The notes: generated from the sequence alone by a model not told the origin. A DNA stretch of 64,000 bases from Minisyncoccia bacterium (GCA_041738235.1 JBGSQF010000013.1:193899-257898), one strand, 5' to 3'; shown: positions 919 to 38,664, numbered from the stretch's first letter. Made by a program: numbers and translations.

Positions 919-1992
919 CTATGAATCTAATCCAACTTCCTTCATATATACCGTCTTGGTTGGGAAAGCAAACTCTATCCCCTCTCGCTCGAATGCCTCT
1001 TTAAGGCTCAAGTTGAATAGTTGCCTCACATCCATATACACATCATAGTCACTCGTTTCCACAAAATACACACATTCAAAAGATAAGGCACTCTCCTCAA
1101 AGTTTTTAAAGTGTGCTCGACCAAACGTCGTATTCTCAATGGAAGAGACGATCTCTTTCATGATCTCGGGTATCCTCTTCAACTTTTCATTCGGCGTATC
1201 ATAGGTCACACCAAATTCTTTAGAGACCCTTCGTCGTTTCATCTTTTTAAAGTTCTGTACACGTGAAGAGGTCAACTCAGAGTTAGAAATGATGATCTCC
1301 TCTCCCCCCAACGACTTTATCCGAGTCGTTTTGATACCAATACTCTTTACTGTACCGCTATGTTCACCTACAACAATGAAATCTCCCACAGAAAAAGGCT
1401 TCTCAAGATAGAGAGAGAAAGAACTAAAAAGGTCCTTGAGAATATTTTGAAGTGCGAACGCAACGGCAATACCTCCTATCCCCACCCCAGCGATCAGAGA
1501 CGTCACATCGATCCCAAGATTGGACAAAACGACCAAGGTCCCAAATACCCACACCAACCCCTTGATGATCGACCCAAGAAGCTGTACTGCGACCTTTGCA
1601 TGTGCATCTGATTTCACGCGAAATACTCCATCGGCTATAAAGTCGATCACAACACGTAACGTCACCACTATCTGATAGGTAACCAAAATGATCAACAGTG
1701 TATTAATGATCGAATGTGTGAGACCGTTCAAAGTCAATGTCCTTATTGCAATATATGCCGCTAGAAACAAAGAGAGCGGTGGACGCAATGACTCGATCAC
1801 CTGTATCACTATATTATCAATATCCGTCTTGGTCTTCTCAGAAAATCGCTTGAGACGAGTCATCAGTAGTTGTTGAGCGAGAAATAAGATGACCGCAAAT
1901 ATGATGAATGAGAGAAGTGCTTGTATATAGGCGATTGCCGTATTCCCCCAAAGTGTTGTGGTCCATCCGGACCAAAAAAGAATCTCTTCCAT
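919..1992 (-). CDS. Mechanosensitive ion channel, MscS family
   Basis: 357 aa with N-terminal TM helices, followed by a beta-domain and C-terminal region typical of small-conductance mechanosensitive channels (...VGDFIVVGEHSGTVKSIGIKTTRIKSLGGEEIIISNSEL...). Confidence 0.8.
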   Translation of the reverse strand: MEEILFWSGWTTTLWGNTAIAYIQALLSFIIFAVILFLAQQLLMTRLKRFSEKTKTDIDNIVIQVIESLRPPLSLFLAAYIAIRTLTLNGLTHSIINTLLIILVTYQIVVTLRVVIDFIADGVFRVKSDAHAKVAVQLLGSIIKGLVWVFGTLVVLSNLGIDVTSLIAGVGIGGIAVAFALQNILKDLFSSFSLYLEKPFSVGDFIVVGEHSGTVKSIGIKTTRIKSLGGEEIIISNSELTSSRVQNFKKMKRRRVSKEFGVTYDTPNEKLKRIPEIMKEIVSSIENTTFGRAHFKNFEESALSFECVYFVETSDYDVYMDVRQLFNLSLKEAFEREGIEFAFPTKTVYMKEVGLDS

Positions 1993-2523: not shown

Positions 2524-2964
2524 TCAAAACATTGGGTGGCGTGGGATGGATGACGACGAGTTCCCATCATCCGATCCACCATGTTTTCCCAGGGTCAAGC
2601 GATCATCATCGCGCTGTCCATACGGTCTTGCAATACCAGACTTTTTTTCTTTCTCCTCAAGATACCGATCACGTGCCTTCATAAGTCGTCGATCATCGAT
2701 CCCAAACCGTTTTGCGATACTCCTTGCCTCTTTTTTGTTTATGTGATCTCCCTCTCCATAGCGCGCCTTCGCCACAATATCTGCCATCTCATCAAACGTT
2801 ACTCCACCTTTCTTCCTATCAAGTATTTCATCACGTAGCCATCGCTTTTCGGCCATTATATCCATACCTTCTGTTCCTCGAGCAACCTTTTTCATATCCT
2901 TCTTATCTCTCCCATGTTTGAAATAATCTGTTGAAAAAACTTTTTTTGTTTTGCCAAATATCAT
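2524..2964 (-). CDS. Hypothetical protein, charged and Lys/Arg/Asp-rich
   Basis: 146-aa ORF filling a gap between flanking genes; no recognisable motif. Confidence 0.4.
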   Translation of the reverse strand: MIFGKTKKVFSTDYFKHGRDKKDMKKVARGTEGMDIMAEKRWLRDEILDRKKGGVTFDEMADIVAKARYGEGDHINKKEARSIAKRFGIDDRRLMKARDRYLEEKEKKSGIARPYGQRDDDRLTLGKHGGSDDGNSSSSIPRHPMF

Positions 2965-3001
2965 ATGTCTTCCACGTTATTTTTTATCAAACATGATCCC
3001 A

Positions 3002-4708
3002 CTATTTTCTGATCGAACTCAGATCCCTGCCCCTTTCTATAACTCCGTTTTGCTTTATTTTTAATACCGACCGCTTGTTTTTATGACCCTCATCCCTTAA
3101 GGCCCCCATATCCACGGATGCCACGCTCAAGTCTTGTCTCTCGTACACCGGAAGAAATTGATCCGTGTGTCCATGAAATATAGCGTTGATACCCTGCTTT
3201 TTTATGGCATCAATAAAGTTAAACTCATCCTTCCCCGAAAGCCCCCTCCAAAAATATTCCCGGTTATCCGTATTCAGAAAGACGTCACGCAACTGATCAA
3301 AAAAGGGACTCGGCTCCTTATTGTTCAACAACACATCTCTCAATCCCGCCTGATAATATGTATTGATACGATCAACCATCATCTTTATATCCCCCTGCTT
3401 CGTCAATGTCTCCATCATAGAAAATGTCGGATCGGTATGTGTAAACAAACTGTCATCATGCACTACAGCCAATTTGAAATTACACATCGTTTCTAACATT
3501 TCCCTCCCCCGAGAATCCCCTTGCATATTTCTGAGCACCAATTCTCTTTCTGCATTGAGTTGTTGCCAAATACGTTCCTGCTGCCCGGCGTCCAGCGTTG
3601 TGAATGCATCCAGATCAACACCGCTGAGTTGTGAAGACCCGTATCTGCATAGTTCTAATAGCCCGTAATAGTGACCCTGTCGACACGACTCAAAAGCGTC
3701 AGAACTGGCCGCCCCAATCCTACCAGAAAGAAATGAGAGAAAAAAATCTTCATGATTTCCAGAAAGTATATCGATCTCCCCCCCTTGCAACTTCGCCTCT
3801 TTGGATAATTTCGAGATCATGTCTACCGCATCCATCCCATGTGTCTGCCTATCCCCGAGAATATCTCCATGAAAAACTACTTTTCTATCACCGCCAGTCC
3901 AGCGTAAATTTCCACCCGCATCCACAGACACCACCCCCAAACTCTCCAGATTTGCCCTTAAGGCCTCGACACTCCCGAACAGATCTCCTACCGCCATCAC
4001 CTCACTTGCCCGAGGAATTTTTCTCCAGTCCATAGCTTCGGCCTCTCCGATTTTTTTGCTTTGGTCTTTTGGTTGTGGCAGATCAGGACTCAACACCCCA
4101 CCCTCTGCTGTGCCCCGTGTCTTTGTAGAAAGATCTTCTTCCTTGTGACTCACAACCCTAGATTCTTTCAGGTCCGGGGATCCTAACTCTTTCGCCTTCC
4201 GGTATTCTTGAAGAGCCAATTCATACTGAAAGTTGGTCAGAACCTCTCTATCCACATCAGATAGAGTGGGTGAAAATTTTCCTTCCGCACCTTTTTGCTG
4301 AAAATACAAAAATTCCTCACGAAGTTCTGACATTAAGAAACTATCTTCTGCAAGCAGAGATGAAATGTCACCCTCTCCTCTCACAAACCGTCCAACACGA
4401 TCACCGGACAAGGCGATCGCCCGATCCATCAATACTTTGTCATCCCCCTCCAACCCAGCGTAAAAATCATTGAACGCCTTTCTCTTTCCTTCCTCTCTTT
4501 TGATCTCTCTTCGCTGAGTTTCAGCAACGATCTCCTTTCTTTGTCTCAGAACGCTCTCTCTTTTTGCCACATCGACCGGCAAAGCATCATGCAAAAGAAA
4601 CTCCTCCACAAGCTTGCTTGGCAATCCACGCAATTTTGTTGGAATGAAGACCTCTCCTGAGGGAGAAACTTCCCTTTGTTCATGAACATCCATGTGTTTT
4701 ACTATCAC
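3002..4708 (-). CDS. PPP-family (calcineurin-like) metallophosphoesterase with a long N-terminal extension
   Basis: VVFHGDILGDRQ (GDxxDR) and LSGNHEDFF (GNHE) metal-binding motifs lie in the middle of a 568-aa protein. The N-terminal ~230 aa are charged with a coiled-coil character. Confidence 0.6.
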   Translation of the reverse strand: MIVKHMDVHEQREVSPSGEVFIPTKLRGLPSKLVEEFLLHDALPVDVAKRESVLRQRKEIVAETQRREIKREEGKRKAFNDFYAGLEGDDKVLMDRAIALSGDRVGRFVRGEGDISSLLAEDSFLMSELREEFLYFQQKGAEGKFSPTLSDVDREVLTNFQYELALQEYRKAKELGSPDLKESRVVSHKEEDLSTKTRGTAEGGVLSPDLPQPKDQSKKIGEAEAMDWRKIPRASEVMAVGDLFGSVEALRANLESLGVVSVDAGGNLRWTGGDRKVVFHGDILGDRQTHGMDAVDMISKLSKEAKLQGGEIDILSGNHEDFFLSFLSGRIGAASSDAFESCRQGHYYGLLELCRYGSSQLSGVDLDAFTTLDAGQQERIWQQLNAERELVLRNMQGDSRGREMLETMCNFKLAVVHDDSLFTHTDPTFSMMETLTKQGDIKMMVDRINTYYQAGLRDVLLNNKEPSPFFDQLRDVFLNTDNREYFWRGLSGKDEFNFIDAIKKQGINAIFHGHTDQFLPVYERQDLSVASVDMGALRDEGHKNKRSVLKIKQNGVIERGRDLSSIRK

Positions 4709-7229: not shown

Positions 7230-8354
7230 TTATTGCTTTGCCGACTCTCGAAGACCTACATAAATAATGCCTGGGTTTTTGAAGTCATGGATCATCACAC
7301 TCACAGAAGCTTTATCGGCATCAAGTTGATACGGGAACCAATTTACTCCACCATCCGTCGTTCGATAAATGGCCTGAGCGCTATTGTAGTAGATCTCACT
7401 TGAATTCTCAGGACTTACTACGACCGAGGCTATAGGAAATGCCTTGGAGCTCCCAATGATGTTTATTTCTTCCCAATTTGCACCATACCCTGAAAAACGA
7501 AAAAGTCCTTTATTCGTTCCCACGTACCCCACGCCCTGCAGTTTTCTATCAAGCGAATAAGAGTAAACTGAACCGACCACCACGTCTTTTACAGCACATT
7601 CTTTCCCTTGTACACAAGCCTTCTTTTTTTCATCAAGTGCTTTCTTCCACTCTTCCTTCATATCAACAAATGTGTTGCCACCATCTCGACTCATAAGAAG
7701 ACTGTTTTGAAACGTCATAACATACACGATACTCTCGTTAAAAGGATCTACGGAAAGTGCACGGACGGGTTTTCCAGCATTAAACTTATTTTCCCATGTC
7801 GCTCCACCGTCTTGGGTCATAATGATCACGCCAGTACTCGTTCCGGCATATACAACATCGGGCACACTTTTTTTGAGTGCCAAGGAAAGCAGTACTGTCC
7901 CGTCCGCCGGCTCCGTATAAGTTTCCTTCCAGGTTTCCCCACCATCTATGGTCTTTGCGATCTTTGCTCTTCCATTGAAGACACCTGTCACATACGCGAT
8001 ATTTGAATCAGAAGGATGTGTAGCGATCGCGTAATTCTTTTGGATCGGCACATTGACTTGCGCCCAAGTCTCCCCACCATCTTTGGTCATAAAGACCCCA
8101 CTCTCCAACGACCCGAGATAGATCTTCTTGGTATCCATATAATCCATACCCAAAGAAAGAACGTTCACTTTTGCAATGTTCTTTTTATCATCGACTTTTA
8201 CGATCGGCTTATAGGCTTGTCCCCGATCATCGGAACGTATCATTCCTCCAGTCATCGTCGAAATAGACACTTCTGTATTCCCAGTTGGTAATGTACATCC
8301 CGAAAGCAGAAACGCTACAACAAGAACAAGCCCACTTCCCACGATCTTTTTCAT
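7230..8354 (-). CDS. Lipoprotein with BNR/Asp-box (sialidase-type) repeats
   Basis: Signal peptide plus lipobox (LLSGC). There are at least five S/T-x-DGG-x-T-W repeats: TKDGGETW, TIDGGETW, TQDGGATW, SRDGGNTF and TTDGGVNW. Confidence 0.75.
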   Translation of the reverse strand: MKKIVGSGLVLVVAFLLSGCTLPTGNTEVSISTMTGGMIRSDDRGQAYKPIVKVDDKKNIAKVNVLSLGMDYMDTKKIYLGSLESGVFMTKDGGETWAQVNVPIQKNYAIATHPSDSNIAYVTGVFNGRAKIAKTIDGGETWKETYTEPADGTVLLSLALKKSVPDVVYAGTSTGVIIMTQDGGATWENKFNAGKPVRALSVDPFNESIVYVMTFQNSLLMSRDGGNTFVDMKEEWKKALDEKKKACVQGKECAVKDVVVGSVYSYSLDRKLQGVGYVGTNKGLFRFSGYGANWEEINIIGSSKAFPIASVVVSPENSSEIYYNSAQAIYRTTDGGVNWFPYQLDADKASVSVMIHDFKNPGIIYVGLRESAKQ

Positions 8355-8424
8355 AAGCGTATTGTTTTTTTACTTTTTCTTTATTATAGCATAAAAGAGC
8401 ATAAAGAAAAGCCTCTTTTCCCCA

Positions 8425-8517
8425 ATAAAAAAACGCTTTGCGCGTTGTTGTTTCCTGAAAAACTTTTGTCGGCGGGGACAAGCGGATCCTGATACTACAA
8501 GAATCCAGCTTGTCCCC
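8425..8517 (-). repeat. Box+hairpin unit X1: AATAAAAAAACGCTTTGCGCG box, then a 10-bp GC stem (GGGGACAAGC/GCTTGTCCCC) with GATACTAC in the loop
   Basis: Direct reading of the sequence. On the minus strand the order is strong hairpin, then mini-hairpin CGCGCAAAGCG plus U-run. This is a terminator-like 3' end for a minus-strand transcript. Confidence 0.5.
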
Positions 8518-8929
8518 ACTTGCTTGAGCCATCAGACCGGGTTGACGCTGACTCGGTGCGCTCCCAGAGCCTGTCGGGCGATCGTCGTGATCTTGGTCAT
8601 GCGATCAGAGTCGGGAGAGCCGTGGAGAATGACAGAAAAATGAGCACTTCCTTTCTGGTCAACCCTTCCACGGACCACCTTGTGACACCCTATCTGCGCT
8701 TAGCATAGCGCTTCGAATAGAGCGCCTTCGCTCCCGAGCTTCCCGTTTCCATTCCTGGGAACCGCCTTAAGAGTAAGTCTTGTCTTCAACTCTTGCCTCT
8801 TTTCTTGTGTCCTCCACCAGAACTCCAAGCTCCGGCTCTGGTATTGACCTGTGTATGAAATTGCCTCCCAATTTCACCTATTTTATATACCCCATTTTAA
8901 GAAAAGATGCAACATATAAATACTCAGAC

Positions 8930-14400: not shown

Positions 14401-14865
14401 TCACCACGTGATCCTCTTATATCTTCCCATAAGTTCTGCCTGCTCGAGCATGTGTCCTTCGATAGCACGGAGTAGCTCTGCTTTCGAAGAATCTCTTTCG
14501 AGATCAAGGACAACATCAAGTGCATATAACCGAAAAAAATACCGATGCTCTCGATCTGGCGGACAGGGCGGTGTCCAGTCATGACGACCGCTCGTATTAA
14601 TACCAATAGTGCCAACTGGAACTCCTCCCTCAGTTATACCCTGTGTTTCAGGCGACATATTCCACACAAGCCAGTGGTTCCACATTCCATCCTCACGAAC
14701 ATACTGCGGAACATCCGGATCTTCCACAATAAGAACCAAAGATACCGCGTTCTGAGGAACACCTTCAAATACAAGCGGTGGACTGACACGCTCTCCGTCA
14801 CACGTGTATTTCGAGGGGATCCTCTCTCCGTTCTTGAATTGTGTACTCGTGATCTGCATATTCAT
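14401..14865 (-). CDS. YbhB/YbcL-family PEBP (Raf kinase inhibitor-like) protein
   Basis: The HRYFFRLYALD and DPDVP motifs are diagnostic of bacterial PEBP. Confidence 0.85.
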   Translation of the reverse strand: MNMQITSTQFKNGERIPSKYTCDGERVSPPLVFEGVPQNAVSLVLIVEDPDVPQYVREDGMWNHWLVWNMSPETQGITEGGVPVGTIGINTSGRHDWTPPCPPDREHRYFFRLYALDVVLDLERDSSKAELLRAIEGHMLEQAELMGRYKRITW

Positions 14866-14961
14866 AATTTGAAATATTGTGAACTGACCACTCGTAGTAT
14901 CTTGGATGGGTTACATAAAAAGACAATTGCCACACCACTCATTATACACTATACTCACCCT

Positions 14962-15903
14962 ATGCCCATACTTGAAATAAAAGATCTCGAAAAAAAGTAT
15001 ACCAACAGTGTACAGGCACTCAAAAATGTTACTCTTAACATCAACAAGGGAGAACTTTTTGCACTCCTTGGACCCAACGGTGCAGGAAAAACCACGCTCA
15101 TTGGTATTGTTTGTGGGACAGTTCGCAAAACAGGTGGCACGATCATGGTAGATGGACACGATGCGGAAAGTAATTGGCGTGCGGTGCGTCAACTTATCGG
15201 ATATGTTCCTCAAGAACTCACGCTCAATCCATTCGACACCGTATGGGACACTCTCTTTTATCAACGTGGCTTCTACGGACGTCCGCGAAATGATGCTCTC
15301 CTTGAAAAGATCCTCAAAGACCTTTCTCTCTGGGATAAAAGAAGATCCATGATCCGTGAACTCTCGGGGGGCATGAAACGACGCGTGCTCATCGGCAAGG
15401 CCCTCACCAATGAACCCCGGATACTTTTTCTCGATGAGCCCTCGGCAGGAGTAGATGTGGAACTCCGCAAAGGCATGTGGGATTTCGTGGGCAAACTTAA
15501 GACAGAAGGCGTAACCGTTGTTCTTACCACACACTATCTCGAAGAAGCGGAGTTACTTGCCGATCGCATCGGCATCATCCGAGAAGGAGAGCTAGCCTTT
15601 GTAGAAGAAAAACAAGCGCTTCTTCATCGATTTGGCGAAAAAACGCTCACCCTTTTTCTTGAAAAGCCCATCGACACTATCCCCCCTTCACTCAAAGGTT
15701 TTGACCTGATCCTTTCGGAAAACAAAAAAAATCTGATATATCACTACTCCAAAGGTCAAACGAACGTCACGGATCTTTTAAAAAACCTCCACAGTGAACG
15801 AATTTTCTACCAGAATATGGAAACGGCAACCAGCTCACTTGAAGACATTTTCTTACAGCTCATAGAAAAAAAGGGGGAGACCCAGAAAATCACAAATCTC
15901 TAA
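14962..15903 (+). CDS. ABC transporter ATP-binding protein
   Basis: Start set at MPILEIKDLEKKY (ATG 14962). Walker A GPNGAGKTT, signature LSGGMKRR and Walker B LFLDEPSAG are present. The upstream 139 codons of the ORF-track call have no support. Confidence 0.9.
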   Translation: MPILEIKDLEKKYTNSVQALKNVTLNINKGELFALLGPNGAGKTTLIGIVCGTVRKTGGTIMVDGHDAESNWRAVRQLIGYVPQELTLNPFDTVWDTLFYQRGFYGRPRNDALLEKILKDLSLWDKRRSMIRELSGGMKRRVLIGKALTNEPRILFLDEPSAGVDVELRKGMWDFVGKLKTEGVTVVLTTHYLEEAELLADRIGIIREGELAFVEEKQALLHRFGEKTLTLFLEKPIDTIPPSLKGFDLILSENKKNLIYHYSKGQTNVTDLLKNLHSERIFYQNMETATSSLEDIFLQLIEKKGETQKITNL

Positions 15904-15914
15904 GACTTGCCCAT

Positions 15915-16676
15915 ATGAATTGGATCGGACTCAAAATGATCATTTGGAAAGAGTTGCAACGAACGCGACAAGTCTTTTTGCAAGCCGTGCTTTCCCCATT
16001 TCTCAGCACATTTTTGTATTTTATCGTGTTTGGAACGGCTATTGGGTCACAAATTGGAACCGTATCAGGCGTTTCCTATGGGCAATTCATTGTTCCCGGA
16101 ATGATGGCTATGGCGATCGTTATGAACTCCGTACTGGCCGCATCCAGCGGGATCTATTTCTTGCGTTTTATGGGAACGATCAATGATCTACTCACCGCAC
16201 CCCTTTCTTATATAGAGATCGTTCTCGGTTTCTCCATTGCTTCAGCGGCACGCACATCACTTATCTCAGCACTGATCTACCTTACAGCCCTACTCTTCGT
16301 ACCACTTCCAATAGCGCATCCTTTTTGGTTCTTCTTTTTTCTCTTTGGAAGTGCGATGGGATTTTCTTTTTTTGGTCTTCTGCTGGGTATCTGGGCAAAG
16401 GATTTCGAGCAACTCTCCTTTGTCCCCACCATCATTATCACCCCCTTGAGCTTCTTGGGTGGGGTTTTTTATTCTCTTACGATGCTTCCCCCTCTTTGGC
16501 AAAAACTTACTCTTATCAATCCTCTCTTCTATTTGGTGGACGCCTTACGCTATAGCTTACTCGGTATCTCTTCAACATCGCTTACCATCAGTATTCTCTT
16601 TATCCTAGTGCTTTGGATAGTCCCACTGATCTTACTCAGAAAGATATTCTTGTCAGGATATAAAATACGAAATTAG
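15915..16676 (+). CDS. ABC-2 type transporter permease
   Basis: Six-TM, 253-aa protein immediately downstream of the ABC ATPase. Confidence 0.8.
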   Translation: MNWIGLKMIIWKELQRTRQVFLQAVLSPFLSTFLYFIVFGTAIGSQIGTVSGVSYGQFIVPGMMAMAIVMNSVLAASSGIYFLRFMGTINDLLTAPLSYIEIVLGFSIASAARTSLISALIYLTALLFVPLPIAHPFWFFFFLFGSAMGFSFFGLLLGIWAKDFEQLSFVPTIIITPLSFLGGVFYSLTMLPPLWQKLTLINPLFYLVDALRYSLLGISSTSLTISILFILVLWIVPLILLRKIFLSGYKIRN

Positions 16677-16699
16677 GAATGCCTTTAAAAAACTTGTCG

Positions 16700-16752
16700 A
16701 AAAATAAAACAGGCGCACCGAAGGAATCCCTTCCTTTGGCACGCCTTTTTTT
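16700..16752. terminator. Hairpin plus flanking T-runs between the ABC permease (+) and small ORF 16771..17013 (-)
   Basis: AGGCGCACC...GGCACGCCT pairs perfectly only as RNA from the minus strand (G-U wobbles). U-runs flank it on both sides. Confidence 0.4.
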
Positions 16753-16770
16753 GCATTGGGTCAGGCAGAG

Positions 16771-17013
16771 TTACTGTCTAGCCCGCTCAAAATGTCCCAG
16801 TGGTGCCGGAGGAGGAAGTCCCCCATCCCGTTCATCACCGAACAATATTTGCCCTCTGCCGGCATTTACAGCCGCCGCATCGAGCTGATTCTGAGCCCTC
16901 TTCTTGTATTCCTTTTCCTCCGTTGTTTCCTTATCAGGCTGGTTGTCGTACTGCGATGTCACCGTCTTTTCCTCCGCCCATTTGGGCATGTTGTTCCATG
17001 CGGAACTCCACAT
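16771..17013 (-). CDS. Small hypothetical protein (first gene of the small-protein array)
   Basis: 80-aa ORF with a terminator hairpin directly 3' on the minus strand. Confidence 0.35.
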   Translation of the reverse strand: MWSSAWNNMPKWAEEKTVTSQYDNQPDKETTEEKEYKKRAQNQLDAAAVNAGRGQILFGDERDGGLPPPAPLGHFERARQ

Positions 17014-17094
17014 GGACGCTTTTGTAAATATAGACCCCCTAACTGAGGTTGGCGCTCTCGCTGAGAAGCTTCTTTTTGAAAGCGCCTCACCACA

Positions 17095-17385
17095 TTAGGT
17101 CGGCCGAGCGTTTATGCGCGCTCTCTCCGCCTCGAGTCGAGCAACCCACTGGCGAAGTTGAGCATTGGTGGTTTCGAGGTCGCCAACCTGGGCCGCGAGA
17201 GTGGCATTCCTCCCCCGCTCTACAGCGAGCTCCAACGTAAGGTTCTGAACCTGCTGCTCACTGAGCGCCGAGGCACTCCCAAGCATCGCTATTTTCGTAT
17301 TTGCTTGCCCCAGTTCAGCCGCAAGGCGAGTATTTTCGGCAAGATACTTCTTTTCGTCAGGCGTCATATTTGCTCCGATTGCCAT
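17095..17385 (-). CDS. Small coiled-coil protein
   Basis: 96 aa with heptad-like LxxLxxE repeats (...LTLELAVERGRNATLAAQVGDLETTNAQLRQWVARLEAERAR). It has its own sigma70-like promoter. Confidence 0.5.
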   Translation of the reverse strand: MAIGANMTPDEKKYLAENTRLAAELGQANTKIAMLGSASALSEQQVQNLTLELAVERGRNATLAAQVGDLETTNAQLRQWVARLEAERARINARPT

Positions 17386-17424
17386 TCAAACTTATCCCAC
17401 GGGGATCCGTAGGAATACATTCTT

Positions 17425-17453
17425 ACCCTAGGTCGTTTTTTGCTTGTCGTCAA
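17425..17453 (-). promoter_or_regulatory. Sigma70-like promoter TTGACG-17-TAGGGT for gene 17095..17385
   Basis: Minus-strand read gives -35 TTGACG (17448-17453), a 17-nt spacer and -10 TAGGGT (17425-17430), about 30 nt upstream of the ATG. An almost identical copy sits at 17802-17830. Confidence 0.5.
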
Positions 17454-17455
17454 CC

Positions 17456-17517
17456 TCAAAAAAAGCGAAAACCGGCACAGTCACTGAAAAGGATCTCCCT
17501 TCCTGACCGTGCCGGTT
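17456..17517 (-). terminator. Intrinsic terminator of gene 17538..17768
   Basis: Stem AACCGGCAC/GTGCCGGTT followed on the minus strand by UUUUCGCUUUUUUU. Confidence 0.55.
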
Positions 17518-17537
17518 GATTTTCCCTGCTCTCCTAT

Positions 17538-17768
17538 TTAGGGGTCATCCCCCTCGAGACGGATCCTCCTGTTTAGCCCCCCAAGCCGTCCATTTTCCAA
17601 CTCCAACTCCCGAATTCGTTTTTGTGTTTCAGTAAGCTGGATGAGAAGGCTCGTATTTCGATCAAGAGCGTCCGAGAGCTTACTCACAAGAGCTTCGATG
17701 CGCCTCTCGTAATCATCGCGTGTATTTTTTTCATCGGTCATCACGCGTATCTCCACTTGTCCTATCAA
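17538..17768 (-). CDS. Small coiled-coil protein; the real start is probably MTDEK at 17741
   Basis: 76 aa and coiled-coil (LTETQKRIRELELENGRL). The MTDEK N-terminus resembles the MTPDEK of the neighbouring gene. Confidence 0.5.
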   Translation of the reverse strand: MIGQVEIRVMTDEKNTRDDYERRIEALVSKLSDALDRNTSLLIQLTETQKRIRELELENGRLGGLNRRIRLEGDDP

Positions 17769-17801
17769 TGTCTCGCAAGACTCTGCGAGAATACCTTTTT
17801 A

Positions 17802-17830
17802 CCCTAGGTTGTTTTATAAATATCGTCAAC
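17802..17830 (-). promoter_or_regulatory. Second copy of the TTGACG-17-TAGGGT promoter, for gene 17538..17768
   Basis: Same -35/-10 hexamers and the same 17-nt spacing as the 17425-17453 copy. Confidence 0.5.
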
Positions 17831-17835
17831 TTCAT

Positions 17836-17887
17836 AAAAAGCGAAAACCGGCACGTCGTTGGGATACTACCCATTGACCGTGCCGGC
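17836..17887 (-). terminator. Intrinsic terminator of gene 17910..18308, with an AUACUA hexaloop
   Basis: Stem CCGGCACG/CGTGCCGG with inner GGG-AUACUA-CCC, followed by a U-run (minus strand). Confidence 0.55.
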
Positions 17888-17909
17888 GTAACCGAGACGC
17901 GAGGCGAAG

Positions 17910-18308
17910 CTAAATTACATGCTCGCCCGCAACCTCATAGAAATTCCACCAACGAGTGACCCCCTCCTGAGGACGCTCGTTGTGATGGAAAACAGGGAGT
18001 TGACTCCGGAGCGCGATAACCTCGAGATGAAGACGCTCACGCTCTGCCTCTAGGTACTGAACCTCTTGGGACAGCTCTGTGTTTTCCCGCTCAAAGCGCC
18101 TGATCTTCTTGTCCTTTTCTTTCGCTTCATTTTGTAGCGCTGACACCATCCTTGTGAGACGTGCTATTTCCCCTTTGGAGCTCCCTTTTTGTTCTCCTTT
18201 GCCCTTTCCATTTACCCCGGGATCATCTCCCCAGCTCATGCTCATATCTTCTCCCTCGCCTCGTTGGGCGATTTGTTGACCAAAAACGAAACCTTTCAAA
18301 AAACCCAT
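17910..18308 (-). CDS. Small coiled-coil protein with a Gly/Lys-rich N-terminal segment
   Basis: 132 aa; ...IARLTRMVSALQNEAKEKDKKIRRFERENTELSQEVQYLEAERERLHLEVIALRSQL. A TTGACA-17-TATTGT promoter lies at 18327-18355 on the minus strand. Confidence 0.5.
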   Translation of the reverse strand: MGFLKGFVFGQQIAQRGEGEDMSMSWGDDPGVNGKGKGEQKGSSKGEIARLTRMVSALQNEAKEKDKKIRRFERENTELSQEVQYLEAERERLHLEVIALRSQLPVFHHNERPQEGVTRWWNFYEVAGEHVI

Positions 18309-18326
18309 GTTTCAGAAAGATGAAAA

Positions 18327-18355
18327 GACAATACCCTTTTTCTCGTACTTTGTCA
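18327..18355 (-). promoter_or_regulatory. Sigma70-like promoter TTGACA-17-TATTGT for gene 17910..18308
   Basis: Read on the minus strand; positioned about 20 nt upstream of the ATG at 18308. Confidence 0.45.
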
Positions 18356-18431
18356 ATGTTTAACACCTCCCGATTCCAATACAATTTTCTGAACAACTCC
18401 AGAGTCAACAATCAGATATAGTCCTTATAAC

Positions 18432-18460
18432 CTTGCCACCCTCGTCCTTTTCCCCTACAA
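18432..18460 (+). promoter_or_regulatory. Sigma70-like promoter TTGCCA-17-TACAAT for the nucleotide-sugar dehydrogenase operon
   Basis: Hexamers at 18432-18437 and 18455-18460, 30 nt upstream of ATG 18490. Confidence 0.5.
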
Positions 18461-18489
18461 TAGATACGTAACCATAATATCTTCAAAAT

Positions 18490-19770
18490 ATGCCGAAAGA
18501 AATTGTCACTGTGGTTGGATTGGGGTATGTTGGACTTCCTCTTGCGGTACTCGCCGCCAAAAAAGGTTTTACCACACAAGGACTTGAACAGAACACTGAA
18601 AAGGTAGATCTCGTTAATCGTGGAGAAAATTTCTTACAAGATGAGTTTCTTAAAGAACACTTCCAGGCCGGCATGGTAAAAGCGTCTGTAAAGCCGGCGA
18701 TACTCAAGAAGTCAGACATCATTATTGTATGCGTCCCAACGCCCGTAGACGCCCAATATAATCCCGATCTTGGACCTGTGCGTGGCGCAGTAGAAGCCAT
18801 TGCTAACAATATTACCCTTGAGAAAAAACCCCTTATTATTATCGAGTCCACGATAAACCCCGGCGTATGTGAAGAGGTGGTTGAACCCCTATTGCGAGAA
18901 GCTGGCTTCAAGGAGGGAAAACACTATGACCTCGCGCACTGCCCTGAACGCATTAACCCGGGAGATCCAAAGTGGAACGTTACGAATATCCCTCGTGTCG
19001 TAGGCGCTGCCAATCCCAAAGGACTTAAACGAGCCGTCGCTTTCTATGAAGCTATCCTCGACGCTACGGTACGCCCTATGAAGTCGCTCCGCGAGGCAGA
19101 GGCGGCCAAAGTGGTCGAAAATTCTTTCCGCGATATTAATATCGCTTTCGTCAATGAGCTCGCGCGGTCATTTGATGCCCTTGGTATCGACGTAGTAGAC
19201 GTCATAGCCGGAGCCGCAACCAAGCCCTTTGCTTTTATGCCTCACTGGCCAAGCTGTGGCGTGGGCGGACACTGCATTCCCGTCGACCCCTACTATCTTA
19301 TCGAACGAGCCAAGAAAGCCGGATTTGACCATCGATTCTTACGCACTGCGCGCATGATCAATAACGCCATGCCCAACTATACGGTCGAACTTCTTCAAGA
19401 CAAGCTCAACGACGTTGGACTTCCAATGAATGGAACAGCTGTCGGTGTTTTGGGAATTGCCTATAAAGCCAATGTGAACGACGTTCGCGAATCACCCGCC
19501 ATCCCCATTATTCGCGAGATCAAGAAACACAAGGCAACTGTTCTCACATACGATCCTTATATTCCTAAGCAGTCGACAGAGAAATCTCTCGAATCACTTC
19601 TCAAGAAATCGACAGCGTTAGTTTTGGTAACGAATCACAAGATATTCACTGATATTGACCCTCAAGTATTCCAGAAATATGGCATTAAGGTCATTATTGA
19701 TGGCAAAAACTGCCTCAACAAAACAGCTATAGAGAAGCTTGGCATCCTCTACAAAGGCATTGGCCGATAA
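18490..19770 (+). CDS. Nucleotide-sugar dehydrogenase (UDP-glucose/UDP-N-acetyl-D-mannosamine 6-dehydrogenase family)
   Basis: N-terminal Rossmann motif VVGLGYVGLPLA, catalytic Cys region (GGHCIPVDP) and a C-terminal UDP-binding domain. Confidence 0.9.
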   Translation: MPKEIVTVVGLGYVGLPLAVLAAKKGFTTQGLEQNTEKVDLVNRGENFLQDEFLKEHFQAGMVKASVKPAILKKSDIIIVCVPTPVDAQYNPDLGPVRGAVEAIANNITLEKKPLIIIESTINPGVCEEVVEPLLREAGFKEGKHYDLAHCPERINPGDPKWNVTNIPRVVGAANPKGLKRAVAFYEAILDATVRPMKSLREAEAAKVVENSFRDINIAFVNELARSFDALGIDVVDVIAGAATKPFAFMPHWPSCGVGGHCIPVDPYYLIERAKKAGFDHRFLRTARMINNAMPNYTVELLQDKLNDVGLPMNGTAVGVLGIAYKANVNDVRESPAIPIIREIKKHKATVLTYDPYIPKQSTEKSLESLLKKSTALVLVTNHKIFTDIDPQVFQKYGIKVIIDGKNCLNKTAIEKLGILYKGIGR

Positions 19771-19805: not shown

Positions 19806-20039
19806 ATGTTTTCTCTCCTAAAACTTATTATCTGGATCGTTGGGTTTGTAATGGTCACCGCATTTGTACTGAGCTACTTTGGATACGAAGTAAATTTCAA
19901 CTATTTTAGCGAAAGTAAAGAAGAGTGCCTCAAAAGACTCGACGAATGCAAGAACAAATACATCAAGCAAGGCACTAAAAACGCAAAGTGTGATTTTAAT
20001 TGTATGAGCTCTGATCTGATCATCAAGAAAGAACAGTAA
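19806..20039 (+). CDS. Small membrane protein, hypothetical
   Basis: 77 aa with one N-terminal TM helix and a Cys-rich tail; tightly packed within the operon. Confidence 0.4.
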   Translation: MFSLLKLIIWIVGFVMVTAFVLSYFGYEVNFNYFSESKEECLKRLDECKNKYIKQGTKNAKCDFNCMSSDLIIKKEQ

Positions 20040-20059: not shown

Positions 20060-20470
20060 ATGAAAAAAAGGATCCCTTACGTTCTCACACAAGATGACCT
20101 AAATGAGATCACTCGTCTCTTTTCCGATTACCAAGAATTTCGCCCAAAAAAATTACTCGGCCTCTCATCCCGAGACACTGAAAGCCTAGACAAGGACGCT
20201 GAGCTTCATCGACGCGCTCAAATGCTCAGTGATCATTTATCTCTATCGGGATCTCGCGAAATAAAACCACTTGCCCCACACTGGTGGATGGCCGTGCTCC
20301 GAAAGGCACGAGAAGCAGATCCCCATTTTCAGCTTCCTGTTGAAACAATAGCGCTAAGCAGCACTGAATTTTGGAAAGGTCTCATCGATATGAACAATAC
20401 CCCTCCTCACAAAGAAGACGAGAAGGATGAGCGAGATAAAACAATAGAACCATCCATTCCTTTGCGATAA
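20060..20470 (+). CDS. Hypothetical protein
   Basis: 136-aa ORF within the glycosylation operon; no recognisable motif. Confidence 0.4.
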   Translation: MKKRIPYVLTQDDLNEITRLFSDYQEFRPKKLLGLSSRDTESLDKDAELHRRAQMLSDHLSLSGSREIKPLAPHWWMAVLRKAREADPHFQLPVETIALSSTEFWKGLIDMNNTPPHKEDEKDERDKTIEPSIPLR

Positions 20471-35561: not shown

Positions 35562-35633
35562 TGGGGCGTAGCCAAGCGGTAAGGCAGGGGCCTTTGAAGC
35601 CCCCATGCGTAGGTTCGAATCCTACCGCCCCAG
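35562..35633 (+). tRNA. tRNA-Gln (anticodon UUG)
   Basis: The cloverleaf aligns position-by-position with E. coli tRNA-Gln: U1-A72, D-arm GCCAAGCGGTAAGGC, anticodon loop CUUUGAA and T-arm GTAGGTTCGAATCCTAC. No CCA is encoded. Confidence 0.85.
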
Positions 35634-35640
35634 CTAACAA

Positions 35641-37264: not shown

Positions 37265-37462
37265 ATTTTTTTCAATAAAAAAGATCCCACATCGGCAATA
37301 CTCTTTCTGGCACTCATGCCACTTTCGAGATATAACCAAATACATGATACCGATCGCGAGACCGTTACTATGTACTTGAATTTGAGACCATGCCCTAGCA
37401 AAAACTATGGTTTAGGCCTATAATTCAGTTGTTGGCAATATTATATCACATTCTGAAACATT

Positions 37463-38053
37463 ATGCTTGTTGTTTGCAACACAGAAAACCTAGTTCAAGA
37501 TGTGTCAAGCATTATTACTGCTTTAGCTACAATTGCGGGTGTTTTGCTTGCAATAAAAGGATTTAGCACATGGAAAGATCAATTAAAAGGAAAGACTAAC
37601 TATGAGCTTGCAAGGAGATATTTGAGGGCCGTTTACAAGGTCAGAGATGCAATAAAATTTGTCAGAAATCCTTTTATACCAGTTGAAGAAATGAATGCAA
37701 CACTACAAGAAACCGGAAAAGACCTCGGCAGTAATAACAAAGAAACAAATAGGGCTGTCTATAGTCTTCGATGGAAAAAAGTCAATGAGGCTGAGTCTGA
37801 TTTGAAAGTCGAGCTTTGGGAGGCTGAGGTGTCATGGGGAAAGAAGGCATTGTCAGTTGAAGAAGATTTTCATGATTGTATAGTAAAAATATTTGTTGCT
37901 CTAAAAATGTATCTGGATACTGGAAATGCTTACGAAAGAAAAAAAGAGGATAGAGATTTAATTTATGACATGGGAGAAGATGACAAATTTAATCAAAATG
38001 TAGAGCAGGCCATAAAGAAGATCGAGAATTACCTTGCTCCACACTTAAAATAA
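37463..38053 (+). CDS. Uncharacterised small protein with one N-terminal TM helix (AT-rich cassette gene A)
   Basis: 196 aa with a TM segment SSIITALATIAGVLLAIKGF followed by a charged helical domain. It is markedly AT-rich relative to its flanks. Confidence 0.5.
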   Translation: MLVVCNTENLVQDVSSIITALATIAGVLLAIKGFSTWKDQLKGKTNYELARRYLRAVYKVRDAIKFVRNPFIPVEEMNATLQETGKDLGSNNKETNRAVYSLRWKKVNEAESDLKVELWEAEVSWGKKALSVEEDFHDCIVKIFVALKMYLDTGNAYERKKEDRDLIYDMGEDDKFNQNVEQAIKKIENYLAPHLK

Positions 38054-38055
38054 GC

Positions 38056-38664
38056 ATGTTGCGAAAAACCCTAGTATTTTTACCGATAGTAGTCAGCATC
38101 TTTTTAGCAATCGCCTACTTTCGTTATTTTAATCGAGGAATTGATTTTTGGGATAGTATAATTGGAATATTTTTATCATTGGTCTCCGGTATACCGTTTG
38201 CACTCTGGATTGATGGCCTAATCAAAACTAAAGAAGAAAATGAAAGGATGAGGATGGATCGACTGAGGGAGAAAGATATACTCATGTTCATAAAACAAGA
38301 AATAGATTTTAATTCGAGGTTAATTTTAGATCTTCAAAATAGAGATATTAAAAATGCGAGTTTCCATCCTTTGCAAATAGAGATGTGGGAGGTTTTAAAG
38401 AGTTCAGGTGATTTAAAATTGATTTTAGATACCGAATTACTTAATAGAGTTACCTCTGCATATGATATCATTTCTAAAGTAAAGCACTTTGAAGAAAAAG
38501 CACTGGATAACTGGAATGTCAATAATAACTCGGATAACATAGGGTCAACTTGGCAAGTACAACTAAACCGAGCAAAAAATTTTTACGGTTTATTGGATAA
38601 ATCTATGGGTGAAGCAACTGGATCAATTTCAACAAGAATAAGCGAAATCGATAAAAAATTTTAA
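38056..38664 (+). CDS. Uncharacterised 2-TM membrane protein (AT-rich cassette gene B)
   Basis: 202 aa with two N-terminal TM helices and a soluble ~140-aa C-terminal domain. It is separated from gene A by 2 nt, so the two are probably operonic. Confidence 0.5.
   Translation: MLRKTLVFLPIVVSIFLAIAYFRYFNRGIDFWDSIIGIFLSLVSGIPFALWIDGLIKTKEENERMRMDRLREKDILMFIKQEIDFNSRLILDLQNRDIKNASFHPLQIEMWEVLKSSGDLKLILDTELLNRVTSAYDIISKVKHFEEKALDNWNVNNNSDNIGSTWQVQLNRAKNFYGLLDKSMGEATGSISTRISEIDKKF

Follow-up and report, generated by a model that had tools for sequence, protein, structure and literature searches.

We describe here an accessory islet of short genes in a 64,000-nucleotide (nt) stretch of the chromosome of a Minisyncoccia bacterium (GCA_041738235.1 JBGSQF010000013.1:193899-257898; hereafter the window, with positions counted from its first letter). 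The islet lies between the gene of a Wzm-like ABC-2 permease and an operon for UDP-glucose dehydrogenase and glycosyltransferases, and carries four short open reading frames (ORF1 to ORF4) on the minus strand. We consider it probable, though far from settled, that this is a lineage-specific islet of three autonomous units at an insertion-prone site, which grew in place and whose products are leucine-zipper proteins of scaffold or adaptor type. The islet is no artefact, its proteins belong to no known family, and it is not categorically new either, since it is a chromosomal form, expanded in tandem, of the autonomous small-gene cassette. The host is an uncultured member of Candidatus Moraniibacteriota within the candidate phyla radiation (CPR), as the nearest relatives of the dehydrogenase come from Moraniibacteriota metagenome-assembled genomes, the top species-representative match being 69% identical.

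All four ORFs that an earlier note on this DNA had placed here were present in our ORF listing. The lengths given in that note, 76-132 amino acids (aa), hold for the maximal ORFs, while the likely products of ORF1 to ORF4 are of 72-80, 90, 67 and 111 aa, respectively. The shared MT(P)DEK N-termini of ORF2 and ORF3 were also recovered, read from internal ATG codons behind Shine-Dalgarno sequences; such a sequence precedes ORF4 as well, which probably starts at the ATG listed in Table 1. A codon log-odds model was trained on 42 long ORFs of the window, and with this model the four ORFs scored 0.23-0.31 bits/codon in frame (ORF1 0.23, ORF3 0.26) compared with 0.22 as the mean of the reference genes, and in the other five frames their scores were negative. 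Thus the ORFs did not behave like the non-coding background that the earlier note had named as grounds for giving them up.

Orthologs of three of the proteins were found in a sister strain (L002, Logan run ERR14790927), with protein identities of 51% for ORF4 (ortholog P0127), 52% for ORF3 and 56% for ORF2, and with indels in multiples of three. The ratio of non-synonymous to synonymous change (dN/dS) was 0.30 for ORF4 and 0.21 for ORF2, and for ORF3 dN was 0.48 with dS saturated. Given the in-frame indels, the dN/dS values of 0.21-0.30 and the gene-like codon scores, we regard it as shown from these comparisons that ORF2, ORF3 and ORF4 are protein-coding genes under purifying selection. The adjacent UDP-glucose dehydrogenase is 95% identical between the two strains (dN 0.024), and the non-synonymous change of the small genes is 14-20 times that of this neighbour. 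The status of ORF1 as a gene was judged from its codon score, the sister-strain contigs ending inside the terminator T1 (L092) and inside ORF2 (L002).

The same data bear on a reading in which the ORFs are spurious and the region is a structured non-coding RNA, for which the many stable hairpins and the orphan status of the ORFs could speak. We give this reading hardly any credence in view of the dN/dS values with their in-frame indels, of codon scores that equal those of real genes in frame and are negative in the five other frames, of the Shine-Dalgarno sequences before ORF2 to ORF4, and of the heptad pattern and Asn a-positions (see below), which are conserved between orthologs. In addition, an Rfam search of positions 16400-18700 returned no match even at E <= 1.

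The arrangement of the regulatory DNA indicates three predicted transcription units, namely ORF4, ORF3 (unit 3), and ORF2 together with ORF1 (unit 2). The earlier note had taken each ORF as monocistronic, which does not fit, since no terminator follows ORF2 and no promoter precedes ORF1; ORF1 has no Shine-Dalgarno sequence of its own either and is probably co-transcribed with ORF2. A predicted unit consists, in order, of a sigma-70-type promoter (TTGAC-N16/17-TA...T), a leader stem-loop, a Shine-Dalgarno sequence, a short ORF and a long GC-rich intrinsic terminator, so that the small proteins would be made, as the note had suggested, from repeated self-contained expression units. The three promoter-like sites that it had listed were found with coordinates off by at most one base, and its three terminators were found as long hairpins followed by U tracts. 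Promoters P2 and P3 immediately follow the T tract of the terminator before them. T1, the 5' part of which was also found at the end of contig L092, is predicted to be a bidirectional intrinsic terminator, which would end both the minus-strand transcript of ORF2 and ORF1 and that of the ABC-2 permease gene, convergent with it on the plus strand. The hairpin between ORF2 and ORF1 is no terminator, because it has no U tract.

When a generic promoter scan was run, 4 sites were found compared with 3.2 expected in shuffles, which is no enrichment, and the TAGGGT sites were missed. The TAGGGT promoters are credible because they are conserved, and not because of the scan: TTGAC and TAG.GT are invariant in five cassettes from three genomes. 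The equivalent of P4 in L002 reads TTGACA-17-TACTGT. The ORF4 ortholog of L002 (about 1200-1400, minus strand) has about 150 nt more leader between promoter and start codon than its counterpart in the window.

The two intergenic regions on either side of ORF3 share a 66-nt repeat of 85% identity, together with a 12-nt 5' stem arm, and the copies lie 376 nt apart. A core of 19 nt within the repeat occurs twice in the window, compared with 0.00 occurrences expected. Alignment of the two window copies with two copies from L002 defined a module that runs from the terminator hairpin and its U/T tract through TTGAC, 16-17 nt, TAG(G/A)GT, 5-6 nt and GTAT(T/C)C to an 8-bp stem-loop, a Shine-Dalgarno sequence and the ATG. 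Identity is 77% between orthologous modules, compared with 54-64% for the coding DNA that they flank, in which synonymous sites are saturated; at the level of these alignments the regulatory module is thus shown to be better conserved than the coding DNA.

Further support for the module came from covariation. Over both hairpins in the four copies, 96% of 100 cells pair and 11 pairs are changed on both sides; none of 500 shuffles reached as high a value, and slid partners gave 38-48% pairing. For the leader helix, with the cassette of a further relative (L099, see below) added to make five, every one of the 39 cells pairs, and compensatory changes are seen in 6 of 8 pairs. Several of the leader pairs are G-U pairs, which favours an RNA structure over a DNA operator. 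The leader stem-loop starts about 11 nt past the -10 hexamer (about +4 of the transcript) and leaves the Shine-Dalgarno sequence uncovered. Stem-loops at the 5' terminus shield bacterial mRNAs from 5'-end-dependent decay. By analogy, the leader stem-loop may be a 5' mRNA stabiliser or a protein-binding site; it is probably not a translational switch, since the Shine-Dalgarno sequence is not covered.

The module of unit 3 is a mosaic. Its promoter segment is 83% identical to that of unit 2 and only 71% identical to its own ortholog, whereas its terminator loop (87%) and leader hairpin (80%) follow the ortholog; the whole of T3 is likewise 87% identical to the L002 ortholog. The promoter of unit 3 in L002 reads TTGACA-16-TAGAGT, and the two promoter segments of L002 (modules 260-441 and 670-828) are 51% identical. 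The near identity of two promoters described in the earlier note therefore applies to the window and is lineage-specific. Given this mosaic conservation, the unit-3 promoter was probably homogenised towards that of unit 2 by a short gene conversion in the window lineage only.

Within the proteins, a heptad register scan found about 12 unbroken heptads in ORF2, about 8 in ORF3 and about 9 in ORF4, with Leu dominant at the d positions. Asn recurs at a positions (three times in ORF2) and is conserved there in the orthologs. By sequence (heptads, Leu at d, hydrophobic residues or Asn at a), ORF2, ORF3 and ORF4 are leucine zippers and ORF1 is not. The coiled coils that the earlier note had predicted for all four proteins are accordingly retained for three, while ORF1, which is acidic and Lys-rich and then Gly/Pro-rich, is of low complexity without a heptad segment. 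AlphaFold2 returned ORF2, modelled from its single sequence, as one uninterrupted helix over residues 3-86 (predicted local distance difference test score, pLDDT, 94.8). For ORF4 it gave a central helix from residue 23 to residue 81 (pLDDT > 90), flanked by tails with values below 50. The N-terminal tail of ORF4 is Gly/Lys-rich and disordered, and the motifs WGDDPG (N-terminal) and VAG.H.I (C-terminal) are kept between the orthologs, as is the C-terminal motif NRRIxLxGD.P of ORF3; these terminal motifs look like short binding motifs. By inspection, none of the four proteins has a signal peptide or a hydrophobic segment that could serve as membrane anchor, which speaks against the secreted proteins considered in the note.

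In the PDB, the best sequence matches were classical or designed zippers, namely GCN4 and Maf, SYNZIP6 (E 1.2e-4) and a "protein origami" design built of coiled coils; these matches reflect the heptad pattern and are no sign of homology. Searches of Pfam, PHROGs, PADLOC and NCBIfam with the four proteins gave sub-threshold matches to generic coiled-coil families only. Phasins, one of the comparisons drawn in the earlier note, were rejected, as there was no phasin family among the Pfam matches even at E <= 1. A toxin-antitoxin (or toxin/immunity) or defence module was rejected as well: PADLOC gave coiled-coil noise (E > 0.001), NCBIfam and Pfam gave nothing, and the units are predicted to be transcriptionally separate. 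A bZIP (basic leucine zipper) factor was a third candidate and was likewise rejected, since the match to bZIP_2 (17.4 bits vs 22.3) covered the zipper part only, with no basic region visible.

Homologs were equally scarce. A word-indexed search of 5.8 billion proteins with ORF4 returned ORF4 itself only, and an exhaustive HMMER search of 1.84 billion cluster representatives returned itself and P0127. The profile search with ORF2 found itself only, with nothing in the JGI metagenomes or IMG/VR, and no match was found among GenBank phages or the plasmids of PLSDB. The DNA pattern of terminator and promoter had six matches in metagenomes, all by chance and in unrelated contexts. Around the dehydrogenase gene in 80 Moranbacteria neighbourhoods no homolog was seen, and the two nearest ones, which were inspected, are not syntenic upstream of the gene. 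The zippers also show no detectable relationship to one another (BLASTP E > 1; hhalign probability 8%). In heptad-preserving shuffles a few pairs reached z 3-4, and the ortholog counterparts of those pairs did not. The diversified paralogue family proposed in the note is therefore not borne out for the proteins, only the regulatory DNA being visibly shared.

Relatives of the locus were then compared, having been found with the flanking ABC-2 permease as anchor and graded by permease identity. In the L002/L092 strain (92%) a syntenic array is found, in which at least T1 and the orthologs of ORF2, ORF3 and ORF4 are present. In L094-L097 (90%) all contigs end 121 nt past the permease stop codon, and their tail is that of L098 (88%), in which the gene of an IS5-like DDE_Tnp_4 transposase (7895-8836, minus strand; Pfam E 2.5e-24) stands directly after the permease gene; the contig breaks are likely due to an insertion sequence (IS) that is repeated in the genome. 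In L093 (85%) the site is empty, with 98 nt from the permease stop to the dehydrogenase start. Exactly one cassette is present in L099, L100 and L103 (83%), whereas L091 (82%) has a 282-nt spacer with a perfect consensus promoter (TTGACA-17-TATAAT) and no ORF, and L090 (79%) has different downstream genes. Given that the site of relatives is empty or holds one cassette, a promoter only, an IS or an array, the islet is best described as accessory DNA inserted at an insertion-prone site, where relatives differ in their number of units. This agrees with the copy-number variation that the earlier note had suggested looking for, with 0, 1 or at least three to four units at the site. The array is dispensable for those relatives that have the same flanking genes without it. 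The promoter of L091 (about 3370-3400, minus strand) is directed towards the 3' terminus of the permease gene; it may be the remnant of a lost cassette or an antisense or small-RNA promoter.

The L099 cassette (2822-3106, minus strand) is made up of TTGACG-17-TAGAGT, a leader of unit-2 type, AGGAGG, a 50-aa zipper ORF (MNEERIRTLEKEIEDL...) and a hairpin terminator. The 50-aa ORF has no detectable similarity to ORF2, was called by no gene finder and is absent from a collection of 15 billion proteins; micro-genes of this cassette type are probably under-annotated in CPR genomes. Across about 1.02 Mb of mostly Moranbacteria DNA, small intergenic coiled-coil ORFs with promoter and terminator were seen only in these arrays and in the L099 cassette. 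Small ORFs upstream of the ABC ATPase gene of L099 were considered as a second array, and turned out to be fragments of a frameshifted ABC membrane gene.

The array also stands out in composition, as the earlier note had remarked. Its GC content is 51.3% compared with a window mean of 44.5% (standard deviation 2.3%, 1.6-kb windows), no other 1.6-kb window of the 64 kb being as high, and the GC content at third codon positions (GC3) is 0.52-0.59 compared with 0.44 +/- 0.05 for 42 reference genes. In the L002 array GC is likewise raised (47.4% vs 42.4%), as it is in the L099 cassette (47.8% vs 42.6%).

Such a composition is what one would look for in morons, which are added phage genes with their own promoter and terminator and a GC content unlike that of their neighbours (PMC3594210). 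In a reading of this kind, each cassette would have been imported separately from a virus or another mobile element, with no duplication in place. The GC-richest segment of the window with its raised GC3, the same excess in L002 and L099, the variable presence among relatives with an IS at the same site in one lineage, and the lack of relationship among the ORF bodies are all in keeping with it. Nevertheless, we consider separate import unlikely. Among the Pfam matches of 49 of the larger ORFs of the window there is no integrase, transposase or phage family (13 of these ORFs are matchless), the phage-derived modules that the earlier note had entertained have no match in PHROGs, IMG/VR, GenBank phages or plasmids, and outside the sister genome no homolog appeared among the 1.84 billion representatives. 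The codon usage scores are host-like. Furthermore, the homologous modules of unit 2, unit 3 and L099 are more easily explained by local duplication than by repeated import, and a GC excess that persists across a saturated-dS divergence points to selection or amino-acid composition rather than to recent import.

An integron-like array, in which the hairpins between the ORFs would be attC-type sites, would account for co-oriented small ORFs split by a conserved imperfect inverted repeat and for a variable number of cassettes. It is extremely improbable here: no integrase was seen in the Pfam scans of 49 window ORFs (13 of them matchless) or in the Pfam labels of called genes at related loci, the hairpins have T tracts behind them and lack R''/R' cores (RYYYAAC...GTTRRRY), every cassette has its own promoter, unlike the cassettes of integrons, and the G-U pairs in the stems speak for selection at the RNA level.

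We therefore return to growth in place, which is favoured because the modules of unit 2, unit 3 and the L099 cassette are homologous and because ORF2 and ORF3 begin alike (M-T-(P)-D-E). The array would have started as one L099-type cassette, of which a unit of about 375 nt, made up of terminator, promoter, leader and the first codons (M-x-D-E), was duplicated in tandem. Rapid divergence or replacement would afterwards have changed the bodies of the ORFs beyond recognition, and a short gene conversion would have homogenised two promoters in the window lineage. ORF2, ORF3 and ORF4 are predicted to be cytoplasmic, each a single long helix pairing as a parallel leucine zipper, with the conserved Asn at a positions setting register and partner choice, and with the WGDDPG and VAG.H.I motifs of ORF4 possibly binding further ligands. 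Rather than enzymes, the products would be small scaffolds or adaptors; a structural or scaffold role is the most plausible reading of their sequences.

Several points weigh against this account. The function proposed for the proteins is putative throughout, and their sequences are the only guide to oligomeric state and choice of partners. The ORF bodies could not be demonstrated to be paralogous, which leaves the proposed duplication resting on the regulatory DNA and four shared N-terminal residues, and the promoter and leader of ORF4 are not of the shared type. The promoters, transcript ends and transcript abundance are predictions; TAGGGT matches the -10 consensus at 3 of 6 positions, and the other candidate promoters of the genome read TATACT. 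The covariation counts come from just four to five related sequences. The array is carried by two genomes only, and no ORF1 ortholog was recovered from the sister-strain contigs. Finally, the raised GC3 could reflect a foreign origin instead.

A bolder version of the same account, which we hold to be rather doubtful, would see in the module an "expression socket", with terminator, promoter, leader hairpin and MxDE codons persisting while the ORF behind them turns over, a cradle of micro-genes in a reduced CPR genome. The products would then be heterospecific zippers, a natural analogue of SYNZIPs forming a lineage-specific scaffold, possibly tied to the episymbiotic lifestyle. It is based on the observation that the ORF behind orthologous leaders has 90 aa in one lineage and is an unrelated one of 50 aa in another, and on the multiplication of the module to three units here.

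Another role for the zippers was considered. ZapB (Pfam PF06005) is a small bacterial protein that forms a single-helix coiled coil, and the zippers might be lineage-specific counterparts of ZapB-like cytoskeletal or division factors, or might serve the neighbouring envelope glycopolymer export. Their size, the single-helix zipper and the absence of any other domain are ZapB-like, and their neighbours encode a Wzm/Wzt-like ABC-2 exporter, UDP-glucose dehydrogenase and GT2 and GT1 glycosyltransferases. We think such a role quite unlikely, as the Pfam scores for ZapB (13.0 and 11.8 bits vs a cut-off of 31.5) were no better than those of dozens of unrelated coiled-coil families, there are relatives that keep the flanking genes without the array, and the proteins have no membrane anchor.

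Table 1 Features of the islet and their positions in the window
Feature	Position	Strand	Description
Accessory islet	16677..18430		About 1.75 kb; the DNA that the empty site of L093 lacks
T1	16700..16751		A tract, ~20-bp interrupted hairpin, T tract; -25.4 kcal/mol, z -2.3
ORF1	16771..17013	-	80 aa maximal; NCBI and Logan gene calls give 72 aa from ATG 16989
Spacer hairpin ORF2-ORF1	17046..17086	-	Imperfect; -23.6 kcal/mol, z -1.5; within 81-nt spacer
ORF2	17095..17367	-	90 aa, MTPDEK start, ATG 17367 (Shine-Dalgarno and NCBI gene call)
Leader stem-loop, unit 2	17395..17414	-	CCUACGG-AUCC-CCGUGGG
Promoter P2	17425..17453	-	TTGACG-17-TAGGGT, right behind the T tract of T2
T2	17457..17516	-	Predicted intrinsic terminator of ORF3; CCGGCACGGUCAGG...CAGUGACUGUGCCGG and U tract; -37.7 kcal/mol, z -5.8
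ORF3	17538..17741	-	67 aa, MTDEK start, ATG 17741 (Shine-Dalgarno and NCBI gene call)
Leader stem-loop, unit 3	17771..17790	-	UCUCGCAG-AGUC-UUGCGAGA
Promoter P3	17801..17829	-	TTGACG-17-TAGGGT; 83% identical to P2 segment
T3	17835..17887	-	Predicted intrinsic terminator of ORF4; stem sequence that of T2; -27.2 kcal/mol, z -2.5
ORF4	17910..18245	-	111 aa from probable ATG 18245 (MSMSWGDDPG...), GAGGGAG Shine-Dalgarno; maximal ORF 132 aa to 18308
ORF4 leader 5'-proximal stem-loop	18291..18321	-	Predicted fold only; whole-leader z ~0
Promoter P4	18328..18356	-	TTGACA-17-TATTGT; divergent from dehydrogenase promoter 18433-18461 (+)

In the Pfam scans of 49 of the larger ORFs of the window, 36 belong to core chromosomal families and 13 have no family. 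The families found include MscS, AhpC, AlaRS, RRF, RecJ, response regulator, ABC transporters, PEBP, UDP-glucose dehydrogenase and glycosyltransferases, and further PheT, sigma-70, ArgRS, DnaX, MurC, MurG, FtsW, TrmD, SMC, RNase III and NusB. Next to the islet, the 452-aa ORF at 14545-15903 (plus strand) is over-extended: its ABC ATPase domain begins at about residue 159, the proteins of relatives have 305-314 aa, and a PEBP gene of the other strand is overlapped by its first ~140 codons. Two ORFs of 77 and 136 aa (19806-20039 and 20060-20470, plus strand), which come next after the UDP-glucose dehydrogenase gene, have no Pfam family; genes of like size follow the dehydrogenase in several relatives, and in one relative a protein of the 23S_rRNA_IVP family is found there instead. 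Farther away, a LOOT RNA (Rfam RF03000) was found at 37297-37418 (minus strand) with 59.1 bits vs a gathering score of 46.4 and the full model covered. It lies just upstream of two Pfam-less ORFs at 37463-38664, and a tRNA-Gln is located at 35562-35634.

CPR (Patescibacteria) genomes are small and rich in unannotated short genes, few of which have been dissected at such resolution. The site described here offers a natural series (empty, one cassette, three-unit array, IS) for studying how micro-genes are gained and expanded in a reduced genome, and it is an example of regulatory DNA that is more tightly constrained than its protein product. The three zippers, which are compact and apparently orthogonal, and a set of CPR promoters and terminators could also be used as parts for CPR genetics, if they are active. 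The islet opens no long-standing question, and its proteins may simply be minor scaffolds specific to the lineage. Of most interest is its evolution, namely the proposed conserved "expression socket" and the rapid turnover of the ORF that it would express.

Among known systems, phage morons resemble the islet in that its units have their own predicted promoter and intrinsic terminator (one unit, ORF2-ORF1, being bicistronic), in a GC content unlike that of the flanks, in its absence from the same position in a relative (L093), and in small ORFs with no assigned function. Unlike morons, the islet is not in a phage or prophage, has no phage homologs and shows host-like codon usage, and its units are arranged in tandem with a homologous regulatory module and have been stably inherited across a saturated-dS divergence. 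Integron arrays share with it tandem, co-oriented small ORFs, conserved hairpin repeats between them and a variable number, but the islet had neither integrase nor attC cores in our scans, has promoters of its own, and its hairpins are predicted terminators.

At the level of the products, the zippers share with bZIP/GCN4 proteins and SYNZIPs a Leu at d every seven residues and a buried Asn at a, but have no basic DNA-binding region. The lpp gene of E. coli encodes Braun lipoprotein, which has a lipoprotein signal peptide and forms a trimer. Like lpp, the islet has very small coiled-coil proteins in compact units with a strong terminator and structured mRNA ends, as predicted here; unlike it, the islet proteins have no signal peptide. 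ZapB is comparable in that the islet proteins have 67-111 aa, are almost entirely one heptad helix and have no signal peptide or enzymatic domain. They differ from it in having no sequence relationship to it, in the presence of three different zippers per islet, in being strictly lineage-specific, and in their conserved Asn a-positions, of a kind typical for parallel dimers of bZIP/GCN4 type.

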